Source: a virus (lineage: Duplodnaviria; Heunggongvirae; Uroviricota; Caudoviricetes). From it: a stretch of 14,290 nt of DNA. Where the stretch lies: positions 1 to 14,290 of IMG/VR virus record IMGVR_UViG_2778261163_000002; one strand, given 5' to 3'. Below, in pieces: positions 4,529 to 11,068 of this stretch. Both the position numbers and the translations under genes were made by a program. The notes beneath the pieces were generated by a model. That model saw nothing but the letters and a program-made list of their open reading frames with translations, was not told the origin of the DNA and did no database searches. Position 1 is the stretch's first letter. Every line of letters begins with the position of its first letter.

Positions 4529-4765
4529 TTTTATGGATCACCTTTCTGATTGATTTCATATTGGCGAGGTGACGTGAGTTAAGTAGAATGGCTGCGGGTG
4601 CTTGAGGCTATCTGTCTCAGGCATGAACACTGAAAGGCAGATAGAGAAAAGCCCCAGTTAACATTACGCGTCCGGCAAGACGCTTAACATTAATCTGAGG
4701 CTCAATCTATGAACGGCAAATCTAGGTTAGCCTCTTACGTGCCGAAAGGCAAGGAGAAGCAGGCT

Positions 4766-4921
4766 ATGAAGCAGCAAAAGGCGATGTTAATCGCCCTGAT
4801 CGTCATCTGTTTAACCGTCATTGTGACGGCACTGGTAACGAGGAAAGACCTCTGCGAGGTACGAATCCGAACCGGCCAGACGGAGGTCGCTGTCTTCACA
4901 GTCTACGAACCTGAGGAGTAA
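4766..4921 (+). CDS. hokD: Hok/Gef-family type I toxin, HokD (RelF)-like, 51 aa
   Basis: MKQQKAMLIALIVICLTVIVTALVTRKDLCEVRIRTGQTEVAVFTVYEPEE matches the recalled HokD sequence almost exactly; AAGGAG 9 nt upstream; the ORF continues in frame upstream to 4709, which is probably not biological. Confidence 0.8.
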   Translation: MKQQKAMLIALIVICLTVIVTALVTRKDLCEVRIRTGQTEVAVFTVYEPEE

Positions 4922-7089: not shown

Positions 7090-7455
7090 ATGACTGAACG
7101 CATAGAATTTGTTTTGCCTTACCCGCCGACGGTGAATACCTACTGGCGACGTCATGGCAATACGTATTTCATCTCGGAGGCCGGAAAGCGTTATCGCCAT
7201 GATGTGGCGCTAATTGTTCGCCAGCAGCGGTTGAAATTAAACCTGTCCGGAAGGCTGGCGATAAAGATTATTGCAGAGCCACCGGATAAGCGCCGTCGTG
7301 ACCTGGACAATATCCTGAAAGCACCACTGGATGCGCTGACGCATGCCGGACTACTCATAGATGACGAGCAGTTTGATGAAATCAATATTGTGCGCGGTCA
7401 GCTCGTTCCTGGTGGGCGGCTGGGGATAAAAATCACAGAACTGGAGTGCGCATGA
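7090..7455 (+). CDS. rusA: RusA Holliday-junction resolvase
   Basis: 121-aa protein with the RRRDLDN motif and overall similarity to recalled RusA; typical nin-region position upstream of Q. Confidence 0.85.
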   Translation: MTERIEFVLPYPPTVNTYWRRHGNTYFISEAGKRYRHDVALIVRQQRLKLNLSGRLAIKIIAEPPDKRRRDLDNILKAPLDALTHAGLLIDDEQFDEINIVRGQLVPGGRLGIKITELECA

Positions 7456-8141
7456 ATAACCAGTATTTACAGTTTGTGCGTGAGCAGCTCATTATCGCCA
7501 CCGCTGATTTGAGTGGGGCAACAAAAGGTCAGCTTGAAGCCTGGCAGGAGAATGCCATGTTCGATACAGGGCGTTACAGGCGTAAAAAAATCCGGTACCG
7601 AGATGAAGTGACCGGAAAAATGATTACGCGGGATAATCCACCAATCCCGGGGAAACAATCGCTGGCGAAGGGGACGTCAATTCCTCTGGTCAGTCCGGTT
7701 GAGTTTTCGACATCATCGTGGCGGCGGGCTGTTCTGTCTCTTGAAGAACATCATAAAGCCTGGTTGTTGTGGTGTTACAGCGGGAGTATTTGTTGGGAAT
7801 ATCAGATCGCGATAACACAGTGGGCGTGGAATGAATTTAATACTCAATCCGGTACCAGAAAAATTGCAGGGAAAACGCAGGAACGCCTGAAAAAATTAAT
7901 CTGGCTGGCGGCGCAGGCATTAAAAGCAGAACTTTTTGGTGGGGAAGGTTATGAATACCAGGAGCTGGCATTACTGGCGGGAGTGACAACTAAAAACTGG
8001 TCCAAAACATTTACTCGTCACTGGGTTGCAATGAAACACATTTTTCACCGACTTGATAGTGAGGCTTTATTGTTTGTAATGAGAACACGTTCAAAACAAA
8101 AGGCGGCATTTTCAAAGCAAAGTGTTGCAAAAGTAGATTGA
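7452..8141 (+). CDS. late-gene antiterminator Q-like protein (QuuQ-type), 229 aa
   Basis: Start ATG overlaps the rusA stop (ATGA); located directly upstream of a promoter/terminator pair, the tRNAs and the lysis genes; no lambda-Q zinc-finger motif, so the call is mainly positional. Confidence 0.55.
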   Translation: MNNQYLQFVREQLIIATADLSGATKGQLEAWQENAMFDTGRYRRKKIRYRDEVTGKMITRDNPPIPGKQSLAKGTSIPLVSPVEFSTSSWRRAVLSLEEHHKAWLLWCYSGSICWEYQIAITQWAWNEFNTQSGTRKIAGKTQERLKKLIWLAAQALKAELFGGEGYEYQELALLAGVTTKNWSKTFTRHWVAMKHIFHRLDSEALLFVMRTRSKQKAAFSKQSVAKVD

Positions 8142-8335: not shown

Positions 8336-8411
8336 GGCCCTTTAGCTCAGTGGTGAGAGCGAGCGACTCATAATCGCCAGGTCGCTGGTTCAAATCCAGC
8401 AAGGGCCACCA
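8336..8411 (+). tRNA. tRNA with anticodon CAT, closest to tRNA-Ile2 (lysidine, ileX/ileZ-like); Met not excluded
   Basis: Cloverleaf folded by hand: acceptor GGCCCTT/AAGGGCC, D arm GCTC/GAGC, anticodon loop CTCATAA, T loop TTCAAAT, encoded CCA; close to recalled E. coli ileX. Confidence 0.8.
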
Positions 8412-8412
8412 G

Positions 8413-8489
8413 CCGCCACTAGCTCATCAGGAAAGAGCGTCAACCCTTTAAGTTGAGTGTGCGAGGTTCGAGTCCCCGATGGCGGTCCA
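8413..8489 (+). tRNA. tRNA-like gene with aberrant features, anticodon loop CCTTTAA (UUU, Lys-like); possible pseudo-tRNA
   Basis: D arm GCTC/GAGC, anticodon stem TCAAC/GTTGA, T loop TTCGAGT, encoded CCA; but C at position 33 instead of the invariant U, a mismatch in the T stem and a mismatch at acceptor pair 7-66. Confidence 0.5.
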
Positions 8490-8491
8490 GT

Positions 8492-8567
<76 letters not shown>

Positions 8568-8570
8568 TAT

Positions 8571-8645
<75 letters not shown>

Positions 8646-8852: not shown

Positions 8853-8877
8853 GCCCGCTTTTGCGGGCTTTTCTTTT
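8853..8877 (+). terminator. rho-independent terminator upstream of the holin gene
   Basis: GCCCGC-TTTT-GCGGGC stem-loop followed by TTTTCTTTT. Confidence 0.65.
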
Positions 8878-8937: not shown

Positions 8938-9153
8938 ATGAAATCCATGGACAAAATTTCAACGGGCATTGCCTATGGCACCTCCGCAGGCAGTGCTGGC
9001 TACTGGTTTTTACAGTGGCTTGATCAGGTCAGTCCGTCACAGTGGGCTGCGATTGGTGTGCTGGGGAGTCTGGTTCTGGGCTTCCTGACTTATCTGACAA
9101 ATCTGTACTTCAAAATCAGAGAAGACAAGCGTAAGGCTGCACGGGGAGAGTAA
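8938..9153 (+). CDS. class II holin / pinholin, phage-21 S-like, dual-start motif MKSM
   Basis: 71-aa protein matching the recalled S21 pinholin; GGAGGTGAGG before the ATG; Met1/Met4 dual start typical of antiholin/holin pairs. Confidence 0.85.
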
Positions 9154-9157
9154 TTCA

Positions 9158-9508
9158 ATGACTCAAAACTATGAACTGATTGTGAAAGGGATCCGCAATT
9201 TTGAGAATAAAGTTACGGTAACTTTAGCGTTACGGGACAAAAAACGCTTTGACGGTGAAATTTTTGACCTGGACATCTCGCTGGACCGTGTTGAAGGTGC
9301 CGCGCTGGAGTTTTATGAGGCAGCAGCCAGAATGAGCATCAGACAGGTCTTCCTGGATGTTGCTGCCGGGTTATGTGAAGGGGATGAGCAGTCGCCGGAA
9401 AAGCGCCCCGTAATTTTAGAGGCGCAGAATGTATGGATAACCTACAAAGGAAAGCTACCGGGAAGAATTACTGGTTCTCTGAAGACTCCTCCGGAATCAC
9501 AACCTTAA
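9158..9508 (+). CDS. hypothetical protein (116 aa) inserted between holin and endolysin
   Basis: ATG 4 nt after the holin stop, GGAGAG 7 nt upstream; no TM segment or signal peptide evident; no family recognised. Confidence 0.55.
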   Translation: MTQNYELIVKGIRNFENKVTVTLALRDKKRFDGEIFDLDISLDRVEGAALEFYEAAARMSIRQVFLDVAAGLCEGDEQSPEKRPVILEAQNVWITYKGKLPGRITGSLKTPPESQP

Positions 9509-9571
9509 GTCACTGACCGGAACAGATAAACCTGTCCGTGGGCAGAAACCGATAAATCCTGATAAATATCC

Positions 9572-10105
9572 ATGAACGCAAAAATCAGATACGGCCTGTC
9601 GGCTGCCGTTCTGGCACTGATTGCCGTCGGTGCGCCCGCGCCTGATATTCTCGACCAGTTTCTGGATGAAAAAGAAGGTAACCACACAACGGCATACCGC
9701 GATGGGTCCGGCATCTGGACCATCTGTCGGGGTGCCACGATGGTGGATGGAAAACCCGTTTTTCCCGGTATGAAACTGTCGAAGGAAAAATGCGACCAGG
9801 TCAACGCCATTGAGCGTGATAAGGCGCTGGCATGGGTGGAGCGCAATATTAAAGTACCACTGACCGAACCACAAAAAGCGGGTATAGCGTCATTCTGTCC
9901 CTATAACATTGGCCCCGGTAAGTGTTTCCCGTCGACGTTTTATAAGCGGCTGAATGCCGGTGATCGTAAGGGCGCATGCGAGGCGATTCGCTGGTGGATA
10001 AAAGATGGTGGGCGCGATTGCCGCATACGTTCAAATAACTGCTATGGACAGGTTATTCGTCGTGACCAGGAAAGCGCATTAGCCTGTTGGGGGATAGAGC
10101 AGTGA
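9572..10105 (+). CDS. SAR endolysin (phage lysozyme, R21-like)
   Basis: N-terminal signal-anchor-release segment [18 protein letters not shown]; overall similarity to recalled phage-21 R; stop overlaps the Rz start. Confidence 0.8.
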
Positions 10106-10563
10106 GCAGAGTCGCCGCGATTATTTATGCTTTGGTTATCTGCATCATCGTCTGCCTGTCGTGGGCGGTCAATCATTACCGTGATAACGCCATCGCCTAC
10201 AAAGAACAGCGTGATAAAAAAGTCAGTGAGCTGAAGCAGGCGATCGCCACCATCGCTGACATGCAACAGCGTCAGCGTGATGTTGCTGCACTCGATGCAA
10301 AGTACTCGAGAGAATTAGCCAATGCGAAAGCTGAAAATGAAACTCTGCGCGCTGATGTTGCCGCTGGTCGTCGTCGGTTGCACATCAAAGCAGTCTGTCA
10401 GTCAGTGCGTGAAGCCACCACCGCCTCCGGCGTGGATAATGCAACCAGCCCCCGACTGGCAGACACCGCTGAACGGGATTATTTCACCCTCAGAGAGAGG
10501 CTGATCACTATGCAAAAACAACTGGAAGGAACCCAGAAGTATATTAATGAGCAGTGCAGATAG
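10102..10563 (+). CDS. Rz: Rz i-spanin
   Basis: GTG start giving MSRVAAII..., near-identical to recalled lambda Rz; N-terminal TM segment; C-terminus ...QKYINEQCR. Confidence 0.85.
10322..10504 (+). CDS. Rz1: Rz1 o-spanin lipoprotein, embedded in Rz in the +1 frame
   Basis: 60-aa ORF with lipobox VVGC and a PPPPP run, near-identical to recalled lambda Rz1. Confidence 0.85.
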
Positions 10564-10594: not shown

Positions 10595-10888
10595 TTATTG
10601 TGAGCAATACACACGCGCTTCCAGTGGAGTATAAATGCCTAAAGTAATAAAACCGAGAAATCCATTTACGAATGTTTGCTGGGTTTCTGTTTTAACAACA
10701 TTTTCTGCGCCGCCACAAATTTTGGCTGCATCAACAGTTTTCTCCTGTCCAATTCCCGAAACGAAGAAATGATGGGTGATGGTTTCCTTTGGTGTTACTG
10801 CTGTCGGTTTGTTTCCAACAGTAAACGTCTGTTGAGCACATCCTGTAATAAGCATTGCCAGAGCGGCAGAAAACAACATTTTTTTCAT
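10595..10888 (-). CDS. bor: Bor lipoprotein (serum-resistance, Iss family)
   Basis: 97 aa from MKKML...ITGCAQQTFTV...LEARVYCSQ, near-identical to recalled lambda Bor; start taken at the internal ATG (10888), preceded by AGGA. Confidence 0.85.
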   Translation of the reverse strand: MKKMLFSAALAMLITGCAQQTFTVGNKPTAVTPKETITHHFFVSGIGQEKTVDAAKICGGAENVVKTETQQTFVNGFLGFITLGIYTPLEARVYCSQ

Positions 10889-11068
10889 CTTATTATCCTG
10901 CATTGTTAAAAACGGCAGAATCCTATGTGACAACAATTAAACGATAGTTAAATGGATTGATGAAAATTAAAACTATATAGGTGGATGCTCAGCCTATTGG
11001 AGGTAGTCAGGATTTGAATGTCAGTCTGTTGTCGGCATTCTGGCAATGCAATTTGGATAAAGCGGGGA

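Follow-up and report, generated by a model that had tools for sequence, protein, structure and literature searches.

Background

The lysis cassettes closest to the one described here are those of phage 21, of VT2-Sakai and of the Escherichia coli K-12 prophage Qin. In phage 21 the pinholin gene S21 and the endolysin gene R21 abut, with no ydfR between them, and in VT2-Sakai, which carries an RrrQ-type endolysin, S and R likewise abut without ydfR. A preliminary description of the present locus had held that the holin and endolysin genes of phage-21-type cassettes are normally adjacent, and these two phages bear it out. In Qin, the order is essQ-ydfR-rrrQ-rzpQ/rzoQ, with ydfR (b1555; protein P76160) lying between the holin and endolysin genes.

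Recent work has linked YdfR to the host ribonucleases. Codons 1-72 of K-12 YdfR were recovered three times when RNase G served as the bait in a bacterial two-hybrid screen (Göpel et al., RNA Biol 2026, PMC13232886). This 1-72 fragment interacts with RNase G, and its interaction with Rne constructs is stronger, while a full-length short-linker YdfR fusion gave a signal only with Rne1-597; moreover, Strep-YdfR co-purified chromosomally encoded Rne1-598-FLAG, which the PtsN control did not, and the Strep-YdfR eluate contained large amounts of DNase-resistant nucleic acid (PMC13232886). In the same study, overexpression of K-12 ydfR caused no growth defect and changed few transcripts. Other reports are scattered. 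The Keio ydfR deletion is found among the envelope-leakiness listings (Paradis-Bleau 2014, supplement); in our view, the kan cassette may have produced this phenotype through polarity on rrrQ. In a 2026 screen, cells overexpressing K-12 ydfR had a 3-fold higher streptomycin MIC (PMC12924614), and when sigma-S was used for in vitro transcription, a CFT073 ydfR probe came out as enriched.

Results

Gene order in the window

The window, by which we mean the whole 14,290-nt stretch of DNA analysed here, comes from a lambdoid E. coli prophage. The Q antiterminator gene (7446-8141) is separated from the lysis cassette by four tRNA genes (Met-CAT, Lys-TTT, Thr-TGT and Gly-TCC; 8336-8645), at a site upstream of S where phage 21 has tRNA-Asn and tRNA-Thr. 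About 70 nt upstream of the holin start, at 8853-8868, there is a GC-rich perfect hairpin (GCCCGC-TTTT-GCGGGC) followed by a T-rich tail. It is located within the late transcription unit, and the Q-modified polymerase presumably passes through it.

The cassette begins with an S21-type pinholin gene with a dual start (M1/M4; 8938-9153, + strand; Pfam Phage_holin_2_1, E 1.4e-35), the product of which is 98.6% identical to phage 21 S21 and 82% identical to K-12 EssQ. Its TAA stop codon (9151-9153) is followed after only 4 nt (TTCA) by the ATG of the gene under study, a + strand open reading frame of 116 codons that extends from 9158 to a TAA at 9506-9508. Next comes the endolysin gene (9572-10105, + strand; Pfam Phage_lysozyme, E 1.4e-24). 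Its product is 94% identical to K-12 RrrQ and is predicted to be a SAR endolysin, having on inspection an Ala/Gly/Ser-rich N-terminus and an E-8aa-D-5aa-T motif; the phage 21 endolysin is a different allele, 34% identical to it. The i-spanin gene Rz (10087-10563, + strand; Pfam Phage_lysis, E 9.7e-50) and the embedded o-spanin gene Rz1 (10322-10504, + strand; Pfam Rz1, E 2.8e-20) complete the cassette. The location of a 116-aa reading frame between the pinholin and SAR endolysin genes, as given in the preliminary description, is thus confirmed.

Downstream of the cassette the resemblance to phage 21 continues: its Rz is 85% identical to that of the window, and in both a bor gene follows on the opposite strand. 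In the window this bor/iss-type lipoprotein gene occupies 10595-10936 (- strand), just after Rz, a placement that matches both lambda and phage 21; its RefSeq relatives are named Iss, for increased serum survival protein. Beyond it lie an HNH gene and then the terminase genes.

Signals for translation and transcription

Inspection of the last holin codons identified a Shine-Dalgarno element, GGGGAGAG, at 9143-9150 (+ strand), with its GGAG core 9 nt before the ATG at 9158; together with the 4-nt gap, this agrees with the tight packing and Shine-Dalgarno equipment noted at the outset. In an alignment of the junctions between S and the next gene in the window, VT2-Sakai, K-12 and 2H10, the same element serves R in cassettes without ydfR, of which VT2-Sakai is an example. 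In the window, R is instead preceded by a leader (9546-9571, + strand) ending in AAATCCTGATAAATATCC ATG, in which no Shine-Dalgarno sequence was recognisable on inspection. This leader is conserved in the compared cassettes that carry ydfR, except those with K-12-type alleles; in K-12 itself ydfR and rrrQ overlap (ATGA), and in the window 63 nt separate ydfR from R. Because the start of R differs between cassettes with and without ydfR, the insertion of ydfR alters how translation of R initiates. The spacer between ydfR and R folds no better than shuffled sequence (z = -0.13), giving no sign of RNA structure there.

No terminator-like site was found between S and R, and therefore the ydfR-family gene belongs to the Q-dependent late transcript, in keeping with the proposal that it is expressed together with the late lysis genes.

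Two database proteins of 187 aa (P0034 and P0041) are in-frame fusions of pinholin and YdfR, with the junction AARESNSMTQ. The loss of a single G from the GGGG run at 9143-9146 would yield exactly this fusion, and these entries may be homopolymer sequencing errors or real mutants. Such a fusion is topologically possible, since the C-terminus of the holin is cytoplasmic.

Family identity and distribution

The 116-aa protein matches Pfam DUF1327 (PF07041) over residues 1-112 with 142.4 bits (E 5.3e-42), far above the Pfam gathering cut-off of 25 bits. It also matches five PHROG families, among them 406 and 2091, all annotated as unknown function; these share the first 77-113 residues and differ in profile length. 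RefSeq entries 100% identical to it carry the label "YdfR family protein", NCBIfam has no model that matches it, and a literature search on the family turned up one incidental mention of DUF1327. From these sequence comparisons, it is close to certain that 9158-9508 is an intact allele of the YdfR/DUF1327 family. K-12 YdfR is its closest known counterpart.

That the reading frame is real, far beyond chance, follows from the Pfam score, from the 319 homologues found in the databases and from a frame that stays open across deep alleles. Alleles with a dS of up to about 0.8 keep an uninterrupted frame, free of gaps, across 112 codons, and pairwise dN/dS is 0.15-0.40; for the N-terminal domain taken by itself, the estimates of dS go as high as 1.4-2.6, which is near saturation. 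These values, with the intact frame in relatives, speak against the suggestion that the reading frame might not be conserved as coding. Many truncated or frameshifted copies are also present in the databases.

Within E. coli the gene is very common. A megablast search found it in 4314 of 5426 complete genomes, with at least 80% coverage in 1903, and the 116-aa allele was present at 99% identity or more in 539 records. In a phage collection it occurred in 101 records, against 438 with an S21-type holin (~23%). Carriers include many Stx1a and Stx2c and some Stx2a converting phages, as well as H-19B, BP-4795 and mEp460. In every case checked, ydfR directly follows the holin gene, and in the window and all 12 Escherichia/Shigella loci compared it lies between an S21-type holin gene and an RrrQ-type endolysin gene. 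The gene is nevertheless optional, because phage 21 and VT2-Sakai lack it. It is, then, an optional late gene of Escherichia lambdoid prophages that is very common in these cassettes.

Outside this group the family is narrow, with 64 clusters at 50% identity among 1.84 billion representatives. A scan of one genome per species returned Escherichia/Shigella loci only, plus two mislabelled MAG contigs. These two (L010 and L012, labelled as Veillonella parvula and Bacillota MAGs) carry an E. coli-type S-ydfR-R arrangement with N-terminal domains 74-80% identical to that of the window, and their labels almost certainly reflect binning contamination. Rare distant members were found in Yersinia rohdei and Cronobacter malonaticus.

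The preliminary description had treated the gene as an unexplained insert. It is in fact a catalogued family member, and the S-ydfR-R arrangement, present in K-12 Qin and in the phage records counted above, was already known; the window adds no new kind of element. The comparison of related cassettes that had been proposed thus gave a clear result, with ydfR present in Qin and absent from phage 21 and VT2-Sakai. The suggestion that it might prove to be a known accessory lysis gene holds in one respect, in that the family is catalogued, yet it carries no known lysis function, and neither PHROG nor Pfam places the 116-aa protein in a lysis-category family.

Domain organization of the YdfR protein

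The product is an acidic (pI 5.2), soluble cytoplasmic protein. No transmembrane segment or signal peptide was detected, the highest 19-residue Kyte-Doolittle mean being 1.03, which agrees with the earlier reading of the sequence. Three parts can be distinguished: an N-terminal domain, a module shared with longer alleles and a short tail specific to this allele. The N-terminal domain (N-domain; residues 1-75, 9158-9382, + strand; pI 4.8) is what stays constant across the family, and it is autonomous: there are homologues of 72-76 aa with no other part. An AF2 model of residues 1-76, built from a diverse alignment, predicts three antiparallel strands (5-14, 18-27 and 34-43) followed by a long helix (50-72), with a pLDDT of 90.6. 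Family alignments show Y5, E6, G47, Y53, E54 and A57 to be invariant. Residues 1-74 are 80% identical and 95% similar to K-12 YdfR, and the region mapped in K-12 YdfR as interacting with RNase E is this same domain.

Homologues of the N-domain are also found away from pinholins. In Cronobacter, a 72-aa homologue (50% identity) comes after Rz in a cassette whose holin genes are of the Phage_holin_8 and holin_3_7 families, and in Yersinia-type phages homologues of 72-104 aa (31-39% identity) lie between the tail genes M and L or I and J.

The remaining 42 residues are unrelated to K-12 YdfR, which has instead a 29-aa tail predicted to be helical. In the window they comprise a basic segment that we call module B (SPEKRPVILEAQNVWITYKGKLPGRITGSLKTPP; residues 76-112, 9383-9493, + strand) and the terminal ESQP. 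Module B, at the end of which (9493) homology to the long alleles stops, is common to the 114-, 176-, 183-, 211- and 268-aa alleles and absent from K-12 YdfR. It is modelled at low confidence (AF2 pLDDT below 50). One database protein, P0146, has module B without the N-domain. Judging from the aligned alleles, the C-terminal module is exchangeable.

The homology and structure search that had been suggested therefore succeeded in part: it established the DUF1327 identity and a confidently predicted N-domain fold, but yielded no significant structural neighbour of the N-domain, the structural scores being at the level of noise and BFVD giving nothing significant. A sequence profile search of the PDB gave no matches at E <= 10. 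A double-stranded RNA-binding domain (dsRBD) was considered and rejected: YdfR has no counterpart of the first helix of the alpha-beta-beta-beta-alpha fold, and the start of its helix is acidic (EGAALEFYEAAA) rather than a basic KKxAK-type motif.

A variable segment between ydfR and R, and convergent genes in relatives

DNA homology between the window and the long alleles stops at 9486-9497 and restarts at 9543-9549, some 25 nt ahead of the R start codon; in loci L003-L007, L012, L022 and L024 it restarts at 9543-9557, and with K-12 only at 9562. These BLAST breakpoints define an allele-specific segment (9494-9545, + strand) that holds the last four codons (ESQP), the stop codon and the spacer. 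It thus amounts to about 50 nt in the window, compared with 320-900 nt in relatives. The distance from the start of ydfR to the start of R takes at least eight values between 308 and 1259 nt, that of the window being 414 nt.

In each of the non-minimal DUF1327 contexts examined, the DNA immediately downstream encodes a small protein of 77-186 aa on the opposite strand, and the 3' end of that gene overlaps ydfR by up to 53 nt or lies within 50 nt of it. In the coordinates of their own loci, these convergent genes (- strand) are at 2477-2791 in L003, 2243-2503 in L004, about 2232-2498 in L005, about 3311-3589 in L007, 3269-3829 in L014, 3284-3517 in L015, 696-1001 in L016, 3744-4025 in L017, 2479-2739 in L022 and 2311-2583 in L024. 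The equivalent position in the window, 9494-9545, is empty, and the window and K-12 alleles are both "solo" in having no convergent partner. Solo alleles, both the 116-aa and the K-12 type, are abundant and under purifying selection.

The partners differ from one allele type to another. That of the 176-, 183- and 211-aa alleles belongs to phrog_2572, that of a 114-aa allele to phrog_2411 and that of Stx2 phage 86 to phrog_1853, with 35718, 25324, 10490 and 18578 found besides; all seven are PHROGs of unknown function. BLASTP detected no homology among the partners, and none had a Pfam or PADLOC match. A search with an E. coli partner found no more than 18 proteins, all from E. coli and nearly identical, too shallow a set for profile comparison. 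The pairing of a ydfR homologue with a convergent gene recurs at four late-operon positions: at the S/R junction, after Rz, between M and L, and between I and J. Taken with the exchangeable segment between ydfR and R, this pattern constitutes a previously undescribed accessory-gene hot spot inside the lysis cassette.

Discussion

Possible roles of YdfR

The best explanation overall, which we put forward tentatively, is that ydfR is a late, moron-like gene whose product acts on RNase E. The gene shares its transcript, which starts at the Q-dependent late promoter, with S, R and Rz/Rz1, and its translation begins from the Shine-Dalgarno element at the 3' end of the pinholin gene. The protein would serve as a moron-like host-interaction factor outside the lysis machinery, and its N-domain would bind host RNase E in the catalytic N-terminal half, perhaps along with RNA. 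In this way RNA decay might be adjusted late in the lytic cycle, affecting for instance the long late transcript or certain RNAs; no global shut-off of RNA would be expected. The specific RNase E mechanism, carried over to the window N-domain by analogy with K-12, is itself possible but doubtful. It comes from one study of the K-12 allele, by two-hybrid assay and co-purification in vivo, in which RNA bridging could account for the contact; few transcripts changed when YdfR was overexpressed; the C-terminal 42 residues of the window protein differ from those of K-12; and the N-domain is acidic, unlike the usual direct RNA binder.

Several phage proteins are reportedly modulators of RNase E with demonstrated effects on RNA decay, namely the T7 gp0.7 kinase, T4 Srd and phiKZ Dip. 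YdfR may share with them a mode in which a small phage protein contacts host RNase E, and K-12 YdfR resembles T4 Srd in contacting the N-terminal catalytic half. In contrast, those three are products of early or middle genes of virulent phages, whereas YdfR is a late product of temperate phages, and there is no sequence relationship between them. YdfR-family genes, those of Shiga-toxin phages among them, occur in about 80% of complete E. coli genomes, and their expression accompanies that of the lysis genes. The RNase E data raise a testable question, whether lambdoid phages adjust host RNA decay late in infection.

The position of the gene invites a role in lysis timing, one of three roles that the preliminary description had proposed. 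On this account, which we consider improbable, YdfR would be a cytoplasmic regulator, its acidic N-domain binding the basic C-terminal tail of the pinholin, or else it would affect the release of the SAR endolysin from the membrane. T4 RIII, a cytoplasmic antiholin cofactor that acts on holin T, would be the parallel: like YdfR it is a small, soluble, cytoplasmic phage protein, and no homology between the two was detected. The architecture is suggestive. All 12 Escherichia/Shigella loci start ydfR 8 nt after the last sense codon of the holin gene and continue into the same RrrQ-type endolysin gene; ydfR is translationally coupled to the holin gene; a pI of 4.8 for the N-domain stands against a basic holin tail; and the insertion moves R from a Shine-Dalgarno element embedded in the holin gene to a leader without one, by which the endolysin dose could change. 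The holin tail, RKAARGE, is however identical in cassettes with and without ydfR, and this constancy, together with the absence of the gene from phage 21 and VT2-Sakai, argues against a dedicated regulator of pinholin or SAR endolysin. The distant N-domain homologues, some among tail genes and others following Rz next to Phage_holin_8 and holin_3_7, likewise argue against a pinholin-specific role. Overexpression had no growth effect, no PHROG of the gene is in the lysis category, and the envelope leakiness of the Keio deletion (Paradis-Bleau 2014), which would favor a role in lysis, may be the polar effect on rrrQ noted above. Among the three proposed roles, that of lysis regulator is accordingly weakened by the homologues in tail clusters and beside other holins, and that of a moron-like accessory fits best.

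The convergent genes suggest another arrangement, in which YdfR would be the constant half of a two-gene module and would neutralise or regulate a variable, convergent cargo expressed in the lysogen, the window allele being a solo remnant. We think this unlikely, and equally so a broader reading in which the S/R junction would be a cargo-exchange slot serviced by YdfR and empty in the window; the N-domain would be a late binder of RNase E or RNA, or an antidote, paired with a variable, lysogen-expressed convergent gene, and the pair would have been inserted at several late-operon positions in enterobacterial temperate phages. In favor of the two-gene module, a small opposite-strand gene is present in every non-minimal context examined, each partner matches a real PHROG family, the pairing recurs at the four positions given above, and the window has 9494-9545 in place of 320-900 nt between conserved flanks. 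Against this, the partners have neither homology to one another nor Pfam or PADLOC matches, the two genes could be neighbours simply because cargo tends to insert there, and the abundance of solo alleles under purifying selection indicates that YdfR functions without a partner. Should the broader reading hold, YdfR would be either the first late protein of lambdoid phages directed at RNase E or the first member of a new kind of two-gene accessory module in prophages.

The third proposed role, in defence or anti-defence, found no positive support. As an anti-defence or superinfection factor, YdfR would be a small acidic inhibitor of a host or rival-phage enzyme other than RNase E, a quite improbable reading. 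The N-domain does diverge faster than its neighbours (window and Stx2 phage 86 are 55% identical in the N-domain, compared with 77% in S and 94% in R), the C-termini are modular and swapped between alleles, and the 3-fold rise in streptomycin MIC on overexpression (PMC12924614) indicates that the protein can perturb host physiology. Most anti-defence genes, though, are expressed early and ydfR late, the structural scores do not rise above noise, and PADLOC-DB gave no match at E <= 0.1 for the window protein and two long alleles. It is very improbable that ydfR is a largely neutral passenger kept by linkage at a recombination junction. Phage 21 and VT2-Sakai do without it, its taxonomic range is narrow (the 64 clusters, and the Escherichia/Shigella loci among species genomes), and many database copies are truncated or frameshifted; but the dN/dS values and the frame intact across deep alleles, the retention of the N-domain at 31-39% identity in Yersinia-type phages and 50% in Cronobacter, and its confidently predicted fold are hard to reconcile with neutrality.

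Additional observations

A 3128-aa repeat protein from a 664-kb ENA contig (P0161) gave six matches to YdfR residues 7-62 (31% identity, E 3e-9), at residues about 790-850 and in five further repeats, with the motif IFELD-x-SQAEIVGSELEFFTNAAL corresponding to IFDLDISLDRVEGAALEFYEAAA. This similarity is probably due to chance and amplified by the repeats.

Two antisense open reading frames, 9497-9874 and 9505-9846 (- strand), lie within the endolysin gene and were rejected as annotation artefacts of a highly conserved gene. The second of these matches phrog_22558 (E 1.8e-46), a family that was probably built from mis-called antisense frames and not from a real gene.

Elsewhere in the window, at 4596-4771, an Rfam match to the sok antitoxin RNA (111.9 bits) indicates that the nin region of this prophage has a toxin-antitoxin locus of the hok/sok type.
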